In this document: positions 14,502 through 21,572 of the stretch, one piece after another
Position numbering within the stretch: position 1 is the first letter of the stretch
How the letters are laid out: each line of letters opens with the position of its first letter
DNA from: an uncultured bacterium
GTDB lineage: Bacteria; Lernaellota; Lernaellaia; JACKCT01
DNA length: 64,000 nucleotides
Assembly (NCBI GenBank): GCA_964586775.1
Contig: CAZPJD010000184.1
Span: 69,987 to 133,986, forward strand
Direction of reading: 5' to 3'
Position numbers and translations under genes: made by a program
The notes under the pieces: generated by a model
What the model saw: only the letters and a program-made list of their open reading frames with translations
Told to the model about the DNA's origin: nothing
Databases searched by the model: none

Positions 14502-14532
14502 TAGCAAAGAGAAGGCCGACCCGAAGGCCGGC
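14502..14532 (-). terminator. rho-independent terminator with a UUCG tetraloop after the cytochrome c gene
   Basis: The minus-strand RNA GGCCGGCC-UUCG-GGUCGGCC forms an 8-bp stem with one G.U pair, followed by UUCUCUUUGCU. It lies 28 nt downstream of the TAA stop at 14560. Confidence 0.5.
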
Positions 14533-14559
14533 CTGCTGCGCGTCGTCTTGACTGCGGGA

Positions 14560-14955
14560 TTACTTTGCGAACGCGCGCACGTAAGCCGCCACGTCCTTGA
14601 TTTCCTGATCTTTCAGCGTGCCCTTCCACGGGGCCATAAGAGGCGACTTGCCGACCGCCGCGCCGCCCTCGGTGATGACCTTGAGCAGGTTTTCGTCGGT
14701 CAGGCCGGTCATGTACGCCTTGTCGGTGAAGGCGCGCGGCTTGGGGTTGAGCGCCGCGCCCGCGGGGCCGTTGCCGTCGCCTTTTTCGCCGTGGCACGAG
14801 AAGCAGAAGGTCTTGTAGGGGGCCGCGCCTTTGGCCGCGTCGCCGAGCAGACCGGCGGCATCGGCGGCGGGGCCGAACGCGATCTGCGCCGCCATCGCCA
14901 AGGCCATCGCCATGGCGACCGTCATCACGAACTTGGAAACCGAACCCTTGCTCAT
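14560..14955 (-). CDS. class I c-type cytochrome (mono-haem, c553-like), periplasmic
   Basis: Signal peptide MTVAMAMALAMAAQIAFG, a haem-binding CFSCHG (CxxCH) motif, and a distal Met candidate in LMAPW. 131 aa. It is the last gene of the molybdoenzyme operon. Confidence 0.85.
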   Translation of the reverse strand: MSKGSVSKFVMTVAMAMALAMAAQIAFGPAADAAGLLGDAAKGAAPYKTFCFSCHGEKGDGNGPAGAALNPKPRAFTDKAYMTGLTDENLLKVITEGGAAVGKSPLMAPWKGTLKDQEIKDVAAYVRAFAK

Positions 14956-15028
14956 GTCATCTCTCCTTCATCGATTCCGCGGCGGGCGACCCGCCGGATG
15001 TGGGCGACGGCGAATGTTCGTCGCGGTT

Positions 15029-17914: not shown

Positions 17915-20900
17915 CTAGGCGCGCTTCACGTAAGCGCCGGCCAGGAATTTCTTGAGCACGTCGTTCTCGTAGCCCGGGCGCAGGCCGAGCTGCGCCGGCC
18001 TCCACAGGCCCTTGCCGCCGAGTCCGCCGTCTTCCGCCTTGGTCATGCGCACCATCGATTCGCGCGGCGCGCCCGTGGGGCAGTGAACGTCGGGCTCGAA
18101 GCCCTGCTTCATCTCCTGCCCGAAGGTCTGCTTGATGGTGAGCGTGTCGGTCATCATCGTCGGCTTGAGCCAGCCGCGCGTGCAGCTCTGGTGGCTTCCG
18201 CCGCGGAACATGGACTGGTAGCCGGTCTCGGGGTTCTTCGCGAGACCGTTCGCGTTTTGCTCCTGCCCCTTCACCGAGCCGAAGGTCGCGCCGTACATGT
18301 TGTGCCACATGCGGGTGACGCCGCGCGGCGTGCCGGGGTAATAGCGGGCGCGCACGAGAAGGCGCGCAACCTTGTAGCCCTCGGGGTATTTCTCCCAACC
18401 GCGGAAGGGCCGGTCGTGCGGATCGGCGTCGATGAAGACGTAGTCGCCGTCCTCGAGGCCGAGTTCCTTCGCGTCGAGCGGGTGAATATCGACGTAACCC
18501 TCGCTGATGAAGGGCATGCGCTTGTCGGTGCGGAACATATCGCCGAAGGGGCCGAACCAGATCGCCACGATGTCGGTGTCGATCGGTGTGGTGTGAGCGC
18601 CGTGGCGGTATTTCGGCGTGTGGAAGATGTACTTGAAACCCTCGTGCGCGAGCGGATGCGACGTGGCCATCAGCTCGTCCACCGTGCGCACCACGTGACG
18701 CGCCTGGCGGGTGTCGGCGTCGAGCTTGCCTTCCGACACGCCGTATTTGTCCGGCGTCTTCGGACGCAGCAGCGGGTGCGCCTTCGCGACGATGACGTTC
18801 GGCTCGTAGAAGGTCGAGTCGATCGGCTCGCGATGCACGAGCAGGTTTTCGCCGCTATCCATGAACTCGGGTTCGTCGCGGTAGAACTCGAGTCGGCCCG
18901 ACTGCGTGTAGTAGGGCTTGCTCTCGTTGCCCTGCTCCCACGCGCCGACCTTGGGATAGGTGCGCGTCTGGATGATGCCGGGGATGCCCTGCTCCGCGTT
19001 CTTTTCGAGCTCCGCGATCTTGTAGCCGCGGGTGCTGTTCGACGCGTTCAGGACGCGCTGGATATAGGGTCGCGCGCGGCCTTCGTCGATGAACTTCCAG
19101 TAGGCGTCGTAGCGGTCGTCGCCGGTCTCCTTGCCGACGGCCTTCGCGATGCCCGCCGCCACCTCGACGTCGCTGCGCGTGTCGTGGATGCGTTCGAGGG
19201 GCGTGACCGGGAAGACGTAGAGGAAGGGATTGGTCACGCTCGCGGTCATGTCGGGATACTTGAATTCGGCCCAGCTATCGACCGCGTACACGATGTCGGC
19301 GTATTCGCAACTCGCCGTCCACCACCAGTCGCTCACGCCGACGAATTCGACGCGCGAGAGCGTGTTGATGACGAAGTCGTAGTGGCCCTTCACGTTGCCG
19401 ATCAGCGAGTTGGAGTTGCTGACCGTGAATGACTTGGTCGGCGTCGGCACGTGCGTCTTGCCGGTCAGCACCGTGTCACCCATGCGCAGGATCTGGTCGC
19501 CGTGGTTGAAGTAGTGAACGCTCTCGGGCTTGAAGTAGCGCTTCACGGTGGACGGCTTCGCCGGATCGAGCTGCACGTTGAACGGGTCTTCGGCGATGTA
19601 CTGGCCGATGCCGTTGAAGAAGCTCGTGCGGTAGTTGCCCGCGTAACTTCCCACGTTGCCGCCGAACTTGCCGACGTTGCGCGTGAGCGACGCGAGCAGG
19701 AAGACGTCGCGGTCTTTGAGGTCGTTGTTGAAGAACTGGTTGGGACCCATGCCCATCGCGAAGAGCGTCTTGTCCTTGTTCGCCGCGATCTGGCGGGCCA
19801 GCATGCGGATCGCGTTGGCCGGCGCCCACGTGAGCTTCTCGACGTCCTCGGGCTTGTAACTGCCGTCGAGCAGTTCCTTGGTCACGTCGAAGACCGTGCG
19901 GCACGTGACCGTGGACCCGTCGGCCAGCTTCACGTTCACCGCGCCTTCGAGCTGCGCATCGACGCGCAGCTTGGCGAAGTGCTCGCCGACCTGATCGTGG
20001 TTCACGGCGACCGGGGCTTTCTTCTTGCGATCCCAGATCACGAAATCGCCGAAGCCCTCGCGCAACGCCTTGGGGATCGTCGGGCCGGCCTGCTCGAACA
20101 TCGGCGGCGCTTTTTCGCCGGCGGCGAGCACCTGGGTGACGTTGGAGAGCTCGGCGTTCTGGTAGCCCGGAAAAACCTCCGCCGCGTGCAGCTTCTTGCC
20201 GGTGTCCATGCGAACCAGCAGCGGCAGATCGGTGTTCGCTTTTACGTAGTCGGCGTCGTAGCGCTTCTCGGCGATGATGACCTGCGCGAGGCCCAGCGCC
20301 AGCGCGGGCGTCGTTCCCGGCCGCACCACCAGCACCTCGTCGCCCTTGCTCGCGGTGGCGCTGTATTCGCACGCAATAACGACGACCTTGGTGCCCTTCA
20401 TGCGGGCCTCGGTCAGCCAGTGGCTGTCGGGCATCTTGGTCGTGATCCAGTTCATGCCCCACACCAGCACGAGATTCGCGTGCTCGGCATTGCACAGGTC
20501 GAAATCGACCGTCTGCTGGCCGGTGACCATCGGGTGGCCCGGCGGCAAATCGGTGTGCCAGCTATAGTTGTCCCATCCGCGCCCACCCTGCGCCTGATCG
20601 GGCGACACGCCGCGCAGCTTGTTGTCGAGCAGCGCCATCGAGTTCGCGAGGCGGTACTGCGCGAAAACGCGCGTCATGCCGAGCAGCGGCATGCCGCCGC
20701 GGAACTTGAGCACCTGCGTGCCCACGCCGCCCGTCGCCTCGACCATCACCGGGTCGTAACCCTGCGCCAGCAGCCGCTTCTTGCCCTCGTCGCCCGTGTA
20801 GGTCTTGGCGATGTTGATCATCGCCTTGGCCGACAGCTCGTACGCCTCGTCCCACGTGCCGGCCACCCAGGAGTCGCGCCCGCGCTGCATGTACTTGGGA

Positions 20901-21394
20901 TCGGCGGCGCCGGTCTTGGGATCGCGCGGGAAACCGTCCACCACCCACTGCTTGAAGCCCTTGCGGATCATCGGCTTGCGGCAGCGGCGATCGCCGTAAA
21001 AACGCCGCGCCAGCGCGAGGCCCTTCTGGCAGCAGCGCGGATCCCAGCGCCGGCTCGCCGAACGGCCATCGAGGTCCGTCGCCTGATGGAATCCGTAGGT
21101 CGGCCCGATGCGCGTGACCACGCCGTTTTTCACGTACGCCCGCAGCAGGCAGTTGTGCGTGTCGTTGGGCGCGCACAGGAACGTGAACGACGAGTCGGAT
21201 TTGTACAGGTTGCGATAGACCTTCTCCCACTCGCGATTCGGATACTGGGAGAGCGGGTTATCGACGATCACCGGACGCAGCATGTTCATGGCCGCGGCGG
21301 CCTTGCCCGCGACGAGCGTTGTCCCCGCGCCGGCGGCCGCCAGGTGCGTGAGAAAACTCCGCCTCGTAAACCCCTTGCCGGACGATTCCTTCAT
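17915..21394 (-). CDS. alpha subunit, Tat-exported molybdopterin (bis-PGD) oxidoreductase of the Nar/Nxr/Ebd clade (1159 aa)
   Basis: The start [26 protein letters not shown] has a twin-arginine motif, with an N-terminal Cys/His FS0 region ([11 protein letters not shown]). Its size is comparable to NarG/NxrA and larger than EbdA/SerA/DdhA. The track ORF 17915..21499 has a 35-codon Pro/Arg-rich leader that was discarded. Confidence 0.9.
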
Positions 21395-21558
21395 GTCGCC
21401 TCCCGCGATCGCGATGGGATGTCGTACCTGTGGAACGAACTCGAACCCTGGGAAACCAGTTGCCCTGCGGCCGACGACGGGCGTCGGGGCGGCGGGCAAA
21501 ATCCGAAAAATGACGTGTTCCGTCGCGAGCCTTATCCCACATGCCGCGGGGCATGAGT

Positions 21559-21572
21559 TTGACGTGCGTCAA
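21559..21572 (-). promoter_or_regulatory. FNR/Dnr/FixK-type CRP-family binding site TTGAC-N4-GTCAA upstream of the molybdoenzyme operon
   Basis: Perfect palindrome TTGACgtgcGTCAA about 165-180 nt upstream of the alpha-subunit start. Confidence 0.45.

Follow-up and report, generated by a model that had tools for sequence, protein, structure and literature searches.

An NXR-like exported nitrate/nitrite oxidoreductase operon of the 'Beggiatoa/Thermogutta-type' lineage

The nitrite oxidoreductase (NXR) of the anammox bacterium Kuenenia stuttgartiensis (NXR-ABC, PDB 7B04; Chicano et al. 2021, PMC8387239) is encoded in a 15-gene cluster with an NXR-T/tubule subunit, and the enzyme runs in both directions. 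The NXR of Candidatus Nitrotoga, a proven nitrite oxidiser, is periplasmic and Tat-exported, with the gene order A-B-C-D, no transmembrane subunit and subunits of 1169, 385 and 371 aa; its authors grouped it with putative nitrate reductases, in a clade sister to the Nitrospira/Nitrospina/anammox enzymes (PMC6050957; 10.1101/317552). Characterised relatives in this sister clade are the membrane-bound periplasmic nitrate reductase of Hydrogenobacter thermophilus, characterised as a periplasmically oriented NAR, and the archaeal pNar (PMC6050957). A second 'NarGH' of Beggiatoa, noted in 2007, has been debated as to function ever since (Mussmann et al. 2007, PMC1951784). In Thermogutta terrifontis, which respires nitrate, NarGHI-TorD adjoins a cytochrome b/c1 complex (THTE_1512-1506); it is the only Nar-type reductase found in the isolate, was reported as a deep Nar lineage and was described as a cytoplasmic Nar (PMC5673643). 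The SerABC, ClrABC, DdhABC, PcrAB and EbdABC systems share a Tat-exported alpha, a four-cluster beta, an EB_dh gamma and a TorD-like chaperone, and they also exchange electrons with periplasmic cytochromes c. Their alpha subunits are 900-980 aa in length; in EBDH the FS0 cluster has 3Cys/1His ligands, compared with 3Cys/1Asp in NXR, and EbdA has Ile at the position of the NXR substrate Asn (PMC8387239).

Operon layout and subunits

Five same-direction genes, in the order alpha-beta-gamma-delta-cytochrome c, were found on the minus strand at 14502-21572 of the window, the 64-kb stretch of DNA that was analysed (Table 1). The initial annotation had read them as a co-directional operon whose alpha, beta, gamma and delta products make up a type II DMSO-reductase-family enzyme exported by Tat, which proved correct. 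From alpha to cytochrome c, the intergenic gaps are 21, 10, -4 and 73 nt, and a ribosome-binding site precedes each gene, that of alpha being GGGAGG, 4 nt upstream of the ATG. The start codon of delta overlaps the gamma stop (GTGA), and the UUCG-tetraloop terminator postulated after the cytochrome c gene is real, its stem-loop (14534-14513) lying immediately past the stop codon. An arginine-rich ORF at 14952-15974 was rejected as a wrong frame over the delta stretch.

Table 1. Features of the operon and its upstream region (positions in the window)
Feature	Position	Strand	Remarks
Alpha, NxrA/NarG-like catalytic Mo-bisPGD subunit	17915..21394	-	1159 aa from ATG; Pfam Molybdopterin
Alpha twin-arginine signal peptide	21290..21394	-	35 aa, then MNMLRP; RR motif shared with most homologues; aligns with Kuenenia Tat peptide
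Beta, NxrB/NarH-like	16766..17893	-	375 aa; Fer4_11; four Fe-S Cys groups; no signal peptide
Gamma, NxrC/EbdC-like haem b subunit	15778..16755	-	325 aa; PF09459 EB_dh
Delta, NarJ/TorD-type maturation chaperone	15029..15781	-	250 aa; PF02613, TIGR03482; GTG start
Monohaem class I cytochrome c, periplasmic	14560..14955	-	131 aa; PF13442/PF00034; Sec signal
Intrinsic terminator	14503..14534	-	9-bp GC-rich stem, UUCG loop, T-rich tail
FNR/CRP-family site-like palindrome TTTGACGCACGTCAAA	21558..21573	-	TTGA-N6-TCAA core; ~165 nt upstream of alpha ATG
Possible -10 hexamer GATAAG	21531..21536	-	read from sequence; 4/6 consensus positions

The alpha subunit, rightly assigned to the NxrA/NarG size class, carries the Tat motif TRRSFL at residues 10-15. 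An RR motif is present in 66 of 76 homologues and the homologue alignments start at alpha residues 1-11; therefore, the motif is not an artefact of a misplaced start codon, and the concern that translation might begin downstream of it can be set aside. Among solved structures, the best match was Kuenenia NxrA (7B04_B; E = 9.5e-282, residues 9-1157), with 42% identity over an end-to-end alignment. NxrB (7B04_A) was likewise the best solved match of beta (E = 4e-103), whose 16 cysteines form the four groups expected for a four-cluster subunit (4+4+3+4, with one extra Cys at position 48), and NxrC (7B04_C) was that of gamma (E = 6e-23). The proposed identity of gamma as a haem-b protein of the EbdC/NxrC kind with a lipobox was borne out by its family match, an N-terminus that fits the lipoprotein pattern (Cys22) and the haem ligands M159 and K313; when the ligands were checked as suggested, Met and Lys were invariant in 67 of 67 homologues. 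The assignment of delta as a TorD/NarJ chaperone stands on its PF02613 match. The co-transcribed class I cytochrome c was also found as described, with the haem motif C51-F-S-C54-H55 and M107 as the probable distal ligand.

Homology to Kuenenia NXR thus spans the full length of alpha, beta and gamma, and extends to the alpha Tat signal, the 3Cys/1Asp FS0, the substrate Asn, the Mo-ligand Asp, the motif Y-4x-D-11x-QT, the Met/Lys haem b and the lack of a membrane-spanning subunit. Unlike the Kuenenia enzyme, gamma has a lipoprotein signal here, the genes form a compact A-B-C-D-cytochrome c unit in which no NXR-T/tubule subunit was seen, and the host lies outside the anammox bacteria. The operon also resembles the Nitrotoga NXR in export, gene order and subunit sizes, and both give the same sub-threshold TIGR03479/78/77/82 matches.

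Substrate, clade and host

The sequence had been said to leave the substrate undecided. Several observations contradict this: the full-length NxrA homology (E 1e-281), which points to nitrate/nitrite, the retained catalytic residues, and the N-oxide and anaerobiosis genes that adjoin the operons of relatives. Alpha keeps every catalytic or cofactor residue that was named for the NXR structure (PMC8387239), and the FS0 ligands (C74, D78, C82, C122), the substrate Asn (N77) and the Mo ligand (D282) do not vary among the clade members compared (41 of 41). The recommended inspection of these residues found the NXR pattern, although the Asn is not fully diagnostic alone because outgroup sequences of the alpha alignment have it too. 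A different substrate, such as chlorate, perchlorate, selenate, dimethyl sulfide or a hydrocarbon, handled as in Clr, Pcr, Ser, Ddh or Ebd, would fit the outgroup Asn, the shared alpha-beta-gamma-delta architecture with its EB_dh-type gamma, and the finding that generic type II DMSO-reductase subfamily models rank first by E-value in NCBIfam. However, scores against the Ebd/Ser/Clr-type models fall far short of the cut-offs (295 versus 985 bits for alpha), and perchlorate reductase (E = 1e-47), NarG (1e-38) and EbdA (1e-37) match weakly; the PcrA and EbdA matches trail that of NxrA by more than 230 orders of magnitude in E-value and cover only the core. Together with the Ile of EbdA at the Asn position and relatives' neighbours that include N-oxide genes instead of chlorite dismutase or hydrocarbon-pathway genes, this makes such a substrate highly improbable. 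By homology, the enzyme is an exported nitrate/nitrite oxidoreductase of an NXR-like ('Beggiatoa/Thermogutta-type') lineage.

The clade was sampled through its 80 best loci, drawn from at least 589 species genomes, to all of which alpha is 60-75% identical; its carriers are giant sulfur bacteria, Planctomycetota, Alphaproteobacteria, Myxococcota, Acidobacteriota and Thermogutta. In an NJ tree of alpha sequences, built without those of Nitrotoga, Hydrogenobacter, Methanoperedens and Nitrospira, the clade separates from the Kuenenia/anammox/Nitrospinota NXR with a bootstrap of 94, and alpha identity is 40-44% between the two clades and at least 60% within each. The Hydrogenobacter and archaeal pNar enzymes, whose membrane anchors differ, are probably less than ~60% identical to the alpha described here, judging from their absence among the 80 best loci. 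The gene order A-B-C-D, previously considered distinctive, is the norm in the clade, and ebdABCD has it too. It also matches that of Nitrotoga nxrABCD (10.1101/317552) and T. terrifontis (PMC5673643). The second 'NarGH' of Beggiatoa and the genes of Thioploca, Thiomargarita and Parabeggiatoa belong to the same clade (71-74% alpha identity); beta, gamma and delta also correspond, gene order included, and FNR-type boxes lie upstream. In place of the lipobox, gamma there carries an ordinary cleavable signal, and no cytochrome c homologue was co-located in the surrounding DNA examined. A Thermogutta MAG has an alpha of 62% identity in the same clade, the order A-B-C-D and a lipobox gamma. The clade carries the Tat motif, which contradicts the cytoplasmic description of the Thermogutta enzyme. 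Several 'Deltaproteobacteria' and Myxococcales loci have a homologue of the cytochrome c (41-55% identity) directly upstream of alpha, and a few other loci have one at a different place.

The clade, first noted in Beggiatoa (PMC1951784), is on sequence grounds a large sister group of the nitrifier nitrite oxidoreductases. The outcome named beforehand as one that would make this an ordinary enzyme, alpha nesting in a characterised clade, holds in part: the clade is well populated and long recognised, but known from genes alone. The suggestion of a Myxococcota-like host was not demonstrable. The CarB of the host points to a deep lineage labelled 'Deltaproteobacteria', alpha groups instead with alphaproteobacterial and Thiotrichales sequences, and Myxococcales and Polyangia MAGs with the enzyme are already public, so that its occurrence in Myxococcota would not be noteworthy.

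Regulation, gene neighbourhoods and direction of catalysis

The FNR-type box reported upstream of alpha is real. TTTGACGCACGTCAAA is the sole TTGA-N6-TCAA in the 64-kb window (~0.34 expected window-wide), and this core precedes alpha in 9 of 80 related loci compared with 1.1 expected (8-fold, P=2.6e-6), mainly in the closest relatives (Thioploca, Parabeggiatoa and Alphaproteobacteria). A consensus scan called no sigma-70 promoter; if GATAAG serves as the -10 element, transcription may start near 21524, and the box would therefore be centred at -41.5, the geometry of class II activation. Fnr/FnrL-like regulator genes with N-terminal Cys clusters adjoin six loci, which, together with the box, suggests induction of the operon without oxygen.

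Further neighbours in relatives include genes for a Rieske protein, cytochrome b and multihaem cytochrome c, which run straight into A-B-C-D on the same strand in 9-12 loci (one Thermogutta MAG among them), and ACIII with a membrane cytochrome c, which flank the operon in 12-16 Pirellulales and Phycisphaerae loci. The T. terrifontis locus shows the former arrangement as well (PMC5673643), whereas here only the monohaem cytochrome c is co-transcribed. N-oxide genes also lie in the neighbourhoods (qNOR in 4 loci, NorR-like in 4, ScdA/RIC in 10), as do Rrf2 regulators in 22-28 loci, an assignment that holds to the Rrf2 level and does not establish NsrR. Among neighbour families found in at least three loci, terminal oxidases showed no conserved linkage.

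These observations bear on the direction of catalysis. The operon could encode a physiological nitrite oxidoreductase that oxidises periplasmic nitrite, for energy or to remove toxic nitrite, and passes electrons from the gamma haem b through the co-transcribed cytochrome c to a terminal oxidase or other acceptor. Such a role is consistent with the nearest solved structure and its retained catalytic residues, with the conserved high-potential haem b, with the soluble cytochrome c partner used by NXR systems, and with Nitrotoga, which has the same layout and similar subunit sizes in a related sister clade (PMC6050957; 10.1101/317552); it was proposed for Beggiatoa (PMC1951784) and favoured by the authors of Planctomycetota MAGs (PMC10732223; 10.1101/2020.05.19.103440). 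Nevertheless, it appears rather unlikely, given the signs of anoxic induction, the operon's ties to genes for quinol:cytochrome c oxidoreductases and NO reductases but not, among neighbour families of at least three loci, to terminal oxidases, the separation from Kuenenia and Nitrospinota, and hosts that are heterotrophs or sulfur oxidisers, one of them a nitrate respirer with this enzyme as its only Nar (PMC5673643). Alternatively, the enzyme might work as a two-way valve for redox balancing or nitrite detoxification rather than in one dedicated respiration, reducing nitrate under anoxia when quinol and cytochrome c are reduced, and oxidising nitrite when an oxidised high-potential acceptor is at hand. 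In vitro, Kuenenia NXR runs either way (PMC8387239), Kitzinger et al. raised this possibility for sister-clade nitrate reducers (PMC6050957), and the clade spans very different lifestyles and varied electron-transfer neighbours; the single oxygen-responsive site, which argues for one main condition of use, leaves it a distinctly unlikely reading.

The preferred reading, to which we assign a probability of about 0.6, is that the operon encodes a periplasmic nitrate reductase that is tethered by lipid, fed by cytochrome c and induced by anoxia. The FNR-type box with its enrichment, the gene neighbourhoods of relatives, the nitrate-respiring closest relatives and the Thermogutta and Hydrogenobacter enzymes speak for it; the reversibility of the family, the Nitrotoga enzyme and the Planctomycetota proposal count against it. 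We infer the catalytic direction and the electron donor as follows. Delta would keep apo-alpha back in the cytoplasm for the insertion of Mo-bisPGD and FS0, whereupon folded alpha would leave through Tat, with beta travelling along. Gamma would be exported by Sec, anchored by lipid at Cys22, and carry a single high-potential haem b with Met159 and Lys313 as ligands. A quinol:cytochrome c oxidoreductase with its genes in another part of the genome would oxidise quinol, and electrons would pass through the soluble cytochrome c, the gamma haem b, the four beta Fe-S clusters and FS0 to Mo, where nitrate held by Asn77 would be reduced to nitrite on the periplasmic side. An FNR-family activator bound to the palindrome would turn on transcription without oxygen. 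The donor complex and the regulator are assumed, since the window, unlike the Thermogutta locus, carries no quinol oxidoreductase (bc1 or ACIII), nor any nir, nor, nos or regulator gene. In such a system, nitrate and nitrite would need no transport across the membrane, and energy would be conserved solely at the quinol-oxidising step. The closest relatives belong to nitrate-storing, nitrate-respiring giant sulfur bacteria (PMC1951784; PMC6052272), and the operon is a further member of a recognised clade.

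Operon layout and export of the alpha subunit

The region at 14502-21572 of the window, which has a G+C content of about 65%, contains five co-directional minus-strand genes (see table). The alpha-beta-gamma-delta-cytochrome c operon reported in the initial annotation was found to be real and correctly described, and Pfam supports the domain assignments. From alpha to cytochrome c, the intergenic gaps measure 21, 10, -4, and 73 nt, and a ribosome-binding site precedes each gene. The annotated terminator is likewise present; the cytochrome c stop codon is followed by a hairpin, 9 bp in the stem and UUCG in the loop, and then by a T-rich tail. 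The assignment of delta to an overlapping arginine-rich ORF was rejected, as that ORF lies in the wrong frame. Residues 10-15 of the alpha subunit form the twin-arginine motif TRRSFL, and the RR pair is present in 66 of the 76 alphas of the Beggiatoa/Thermogutta-type clade, an NXR-like lineage of putative periplasmic nitrate reductases. A start codon 3′ of the motif was therefore rejected, and the Tat motif is taken to be genuine.

Features of the operon and other observations in the window
Feature	Position	Strand	Properties
alpha	17915-21394	-	1159 aa; ATG start; GGGAGG ribosome-binding site 4 nt upstream; Pfam Molybdopterin PF00384
beta	16766-17893	-	375 aa; 16 Cys in four cluster groups; Pfam Fer4_11
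gamma	15778-16755	-	325 aa; Pfam EB_dh; lipoprotein pattern at Cys22
delta	15029-15781	-	250 aa; GTG start overlaps gamma stop (GTGA); Pfam Nitrate_red_del
cytochrome c	14560-14955	-	131 aa; C51-F-S-C54-H55; Pfam Cytochrome_CBB3
arginine-rich ORF	14952-15974		rejected as delta
FNR-type palindrome TTTGACGCACGTCAAA	21573-21558		sole TTGA-N6-TCAA in the 64-kb window
-10-like hexamer	21536-21531		weak
ORF	13527-14378	-	283 aa; just 3′ of the terminator; SGGVDS PP-loop-like motif near N-terminus; no Pfam match at E≤0.001
ORF	11190-12521		443 aa; signal-like N-terminus; no Pfam match
ABC-3 (ZnuB/MntB-type) permease	37327-38985	-	C-terminal Fe_dep_repr_C domain
ABC ATPase ORF	38759-39568	-	upstream of permease
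segment	35260-37326		about 2 kb; GC3-based gene filter called no ORF

The remainder of the window consists of unrelated housekeeping genes. The fusion of the ABC-3 permease with Fe_dep_repr_C, the dimerisation domain of iron-dependent repressors, is unusual. About 230 nt are shared between the maximal ORF of the permease and the ABC ATPase ORF, and a gene for a ZnuA-type binding protein adjoins the two.

Enzyme identity and placement in the NXR family

Comparison with solved structures revealed that alpha matches NxrA from Kuenenia stuttgartiensis nitrite oxidoreductase (7B04_B) over its whole length (residues 9-1157, E = 9.5e-282); the runner-up structures, perchlorate reductase (4e-47), NarG (1e-38), and EbdA (2e-37), match the core only. 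The best structural matches of beta and gamma are NxrB (E = 4e-103) and NxrC (E = 6e-23), and alpha is 42% identical to Kuenenia stuttgartiensis NxrA (KsNxrA). In the Kuenenia enzyme, C67, D71, C75, and C115 ligate an unusual 3Cys/1Asp cluster, FS0, N70 coordinates the substrate, D275 is the Mo ligand, and the haem b of NxrC is held by M155 and K305 (PMC8387239). The inspection of FS0 and the Mo ligand that the initial annotation had proposed found all of these in the window: the alignment gives C74, D78, C82, and C122 for FS0, N77 for the substrate Asn, and D282 for the Mo ligand, and the haem ligands of gamma correspond to M159 and K313. The alpha residues are unchanged in 41 of 41 alpha relatives, and the gamma Met/Lys pair in 67 of 67 gamma relatives. 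The Mo-site pattern Y-4x-D-11x-QT, as defined in PMC6050957, is also the same as in Kuenenia.

The PF00384 domain, Asp Mo ligand, and N-terminal FS0 motif of alpha, together with a four-cluster beta, an EB_dh-type gamma whose haem b has Met/Lys ligands, and a delta of the NarJ/TorD type, place the complex among the type II enzymes of the DMSO-reductase family, and the full-length similarity to NxrA, NxrB, and NxrC, with every one of these cofactor and substrate residues kept, is that of a periplasmic NXR. All four subunits scored under the curated cut-offs of the Ebd/Ser/Clr/Ddh-type NCBIfam models (TIGR03479/03478/03477/03482), with 294.8 vs 984.75 bits for alpha, 271.4 vs 480.7 for beta, 134.9 vs 169.85 for gamma, and 62.9 vs 152.3 for delta. 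On alpha, the narG model TIGR01580 gave 143.8 bits against a cut-off of 1084. NarGHI, with its cytoplasmic alpha, was ruled out by the Tat signal and by a gamma subunit of EB_dh type in place of NarI, a dihaem b membrane protein; the His ligand of the NarGHI FS0 is also absent from alpha, which has Asp and Cys instead (comparison with PMC8387239). NapA was ruled out by scores far under the equivalog cut-offs (NF010055, 19.7 vs 904 bits; TIGR01706, 17.9 vs 930 bits). Because of the NxrA/B/C matches, the conserved residues, and the sub-threshold scores of the rival models, the predicted substrate is, with high confidence, nitrate/nitrite, and the substrate need no longer be called unassignable. 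A substrate other than this pair is very improbable.

In the protein database, one metagenomic protein shares 97% identity with alpha, and the 119 clusters that come after it (Planctomycetota, Myxococcales, Beggiatoa, Alphaproteobacteria, and others) share 67-75%; 2934 protein clusters match with E < 1e-50. When a single genome was screened for each species, alpha relatives turned up in at least 589 genomes, and the best 80 loci from these are each 60-75% identical to alpha. The top relatives (71-74%) are from Thioploca, Ca. Parabeggiatoa, Thiomargarita, Ca. Thiosymbion, and Alphaproteobacteria, followed at 67-70% by Pirellulales and Phycisphaerae, among them the isolates Novipirellula sp. SH528 and Stieleria sedimenti, and at 60-66% by ‘Deltaproteobacteria’, Myxococcales, Acidobacteriota, Binatia, and a Thermogutta MAG. 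A database search seeded with KsNxrA, rebuilt from PDB alignments, yielded another large group of sequences with 65-85% identity to Kuenenia, which includes anammox sequences and one from a Nitrospinota MAG; no named Nitrospira was among its matches. Full-length representatives in the library-wide search were unnamed or came from Gaiellaceae, SAR202, Tectomicrobia, Thermincola, and Halorussus.

In a neighbour-joining tree of alpha, the NXRs were represented by Kuenenia, anammox, and Nitrospinota MAG sequences. The tree placed the window alpha and all 39 sampled loci in one clade (bootstrap 94), and grouped Kuenenia, anammox, and the Nitrospinota MAG separately. Identity between the two clades is 40-44%. 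Membership of the KsNxrA clade corresponds to about 60% or more identity to Kuenenia NxrA (PMC8387239), and the window alpha, given its identity to KsNxrA and its separate clade, falls outside the Nitrospira/Nitrospina/anammox NXRs as represented by the anammox and Nitrospinota sequences. Monophyly and at least 60% identity to Beggiatoaceae, Planctomycetota, and Thermogutta sequences assign it to the Beggiatoa/Thermogutta-type clade, where it falls in a subclade with Alphaproteobacteria and Thiotrichales, apart from Myxococcales.

The lineage is very large and was recognised in 2007; the enzyme is one of its ordinary members. In Beggiatoa, Mussmann et al. (2007) found an additional NarGH whose nearest relative was the Kuenenia enzyme (PMC1951784). 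The clade that Kitzinger et al. (2018) placed as sister to the Nitrospira/Nitrospina/anammox NXRs contains the Nitrotoga NXR and putative nitrate reductases from known nitrate reducers (PMC6050957). According to the latter study, earlier characterisation of the Hydrogenobacter thermophilus enzyme showed a NAR with periplasmic orientation. Two reports noted NXR-like genes in MAGs of Planctomycetota and Verrucomicrobiota and left the catalytic direction open (10.1101/2020.05.19.103440; PMC10732223). The literature search found no biochemical study of the exact Beggiatoa/Thermogutta-type clade. Fragments of the supplementary NxrA alignment of PMC8387239 suggest that the Mo motif type of the clade also occurs in Nitrotoga and Hydrogenobaculum, which is a lead only, as the OCR text drops and duplicates residues and is unsuitable for identities. 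In that alignment, the row Beggiatoa_sp. (OQY53866.1) begins like a canonical cytoplasmic NarG, with an N-terminus of the HGVNC type, and is a different protein from the NXR-like enzyme of Beggiatoa; the published figure therefore does not represent the Beggiatoa/Thermogutta-type clade.

The host had been described as Myxococcota-like, but it is not clearly a member of Myxococcota. A MAG labelled Deltaproteobacteria (GCA_020845895.1) has a CarB that shares 97% identity with the host's, with CarB-NadE-DAGK synteny common to both; further CarB matches are at 75%, and then at 64-65% to Desulfuromonadales, Deferrisoma, and Nitrospirae.

Gene neighbourhoods and regulation in related loci

All ORFs of the 80 loci were clustered, and representatives were annotated. 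The A-B-C-D gene order was found in nearly every related locus long enough to show it, and is thus not, as had been supposed, distinctive for the window. Four arrangements surround it. In the first (9-12 loci: L063, L066, L067, L069, L071, L072, L074-L078, L080; Thermogutta, Acidobacteriota, Binatia, Chloracidobacterium, and Brocadiia), genes for a GltD-like flavoprotein, a Rieske protein, cytochrome b, and a membrane-anchored multihaem cytochrome c make up a conserved run on the operon's strand, immediately before A-B-C-D and some 0.1-5 kb upstream of alpha. This string with A-B-C-D looks like a dedicated quinol-to-nitrate supermodule. In the second (12-16 loci, Pirellulales and Phycisphaerae), alternative complex III, a membrane cytochrome c, and Rrf2 stand beside the operon, often followed by ScdA/RIC. 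The third (11 loci, ‘Deltaproteobacteria’ and Myxococcales) has a monohaem cytochrome c, homologous to that of the window, with molybdenum-cofactor genes and Rrf2 or Fnr-like regulators, and the fourth (sulfur bacteria and Alphaproteobacteria) is a bare A-B-C-D operon. Across the 80 loci, neighbours include Rrf2 (22-28), ScdA/RIC (10), Fnr/FnrL-like regulators (6), qNOR (4), and NorR-like regulators (4); when the Rrf2 proteins were tested as NsrR, only the superfamily model passed. Genes for the qNOR-type NO reductase and for GAF-domain sigma-54 activators of NorR-like type were seen within 0.2-7 kb of the operon (L017, L019, L058, L073, L062), including in Myxococcales MAGs. Searches of the window by tblastn with the relatives' representatives, and by Pfam on most remaining genes, found no other N-cycle, bc1, alternative complex III, or regulator gene.

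Among 67 gamma homologues, the N-terminus is a plain cleavable Sec signal in giant sulfur bacteria, an uncleaved transmembrane anchor in Pirellulales, and a lipobox in Myxococcales, Thermogutta, Acidobacteriota, and the window; one haem b subunit is thus attached in three ways across the clade. The window complex is thus periplasmic, and its tether to the membrane is probably this subunit.

Homologues of the cytochrome c (41-55% identity) occur only in ‘Deltaproteobacteria’, Pseudomonadota, and Myxococcales relatives (L045-L051, L055, L057, L059, L061, L073), in several of which they lie directly upstream of alpha. In the window, the gene is instead 3′ of delta. Its type is that of the ‘Deltaproteobacteria’/Myxococcales loci, and alpha, beta, and gamma belong to the sulfur-bacterial Alphaproteobacteria/Thiotrichales subclade; this position and this difference in affiliation suggest that the operon is mosaic or rearranged.

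The FNR-type box annotated upstream of alpha is present. Of the 80 relatives, 9 carry its TTGA-N6-TCAA core in the 400 nt upstream of alpha, compared to an expectation of 1.1 (P = 2.6e-6). The subclade of the window accounts for seven of these (Thioploca, Parabeggiatoa, Thiotrichaceae, Alphaproteobacteria, and loci L008 and L022), and L008 has an FnrL-like gene nearby. A consensus scan found no sigma-70 promoter; from the weak -10-like hexamer, the box is inferred to lie at -41.5 relative to a transcription start predicted at about 21524.

Direction of catalysis and significance

In the proposed mechanism, which the parts support, the delta chaperone would aid assembly, alpha and beta would be exported together through Tat, gamma would serve as a lipid-anchored haem b subunit, and electrons would be exchanged with the periplasmic cytochrome c pool. 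Because enzymes of the NXR family work in both directions (PMC8387239), the direction is not decided by sequence alone. Nitrate reduction is nevertheless favoured, at a probability of roughly 0.6, on four grounds: regulation is predicted to respond to oxygen, relatives couple the enzyme to quinol:cytochrome c oxidoreductases at the operon level, N-oxide genes lie close by in those relatives, and cultured or well-studied carriers respire nitrate. Thermogutta terrifontis respires nitrate, and its sole Nar, described as a ‘deep lineage’, adjoins a cytochrome b/c1 complex (PMC5673643); this physiology, the contexts of the loci, and the FNR boxes are consistent with a nitrate-reducing role of the clade.

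Physiological nitrite oxidation is less likely, although the products of the Nitrotoga nxrABCD operon (subunits of 1169, 385, and 371 aa) give the same sub-threshold TIGR hits as the window enzyme (10.1101/317552). A two-way valve, which the reversibility of the family would allow, is less probable still. It is similarly doubtful that the host is an unrecognised nitrite oxidiser from a deep ‘Deltaproteobacteria’-labelled lineage that conserves energy with this nitrite oxidoreductase, whose own cytochrome c would carry electrons to an oxidase or an anaerobic acceptor. Pfam searches of most remaining genes in the 64-kb window found no CO2-fixation or oxidase genes. If the nitrite-oxidiser reading were true, much of the widespread clade would oxidise nitrite in non-nitrifiers.

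The window locus alone adds one member to the clade, and the question of direction is no more tractable here than at thousands of other loci; the compact A-B-C-D-cytochrome c operon with a clear FNR-type site is, however, a convenient candidate for expression and regulation tests. Genes of the clade are abundant in metagenomes. HMM-based surveys can count them as nxrA, and in a study of oxygen-deficient zones the ‘nxrA community’ was mostly Planctomycetota (PMC10359470). If the clade consists mainly of anaerobically induced, cytochrome c-fed nitrate reductases, nitrite-oxidation potential would be overestimated, and a third major pathway for dissimilatory nitrate reduction, beside Nar and Nap, would be under-counted.
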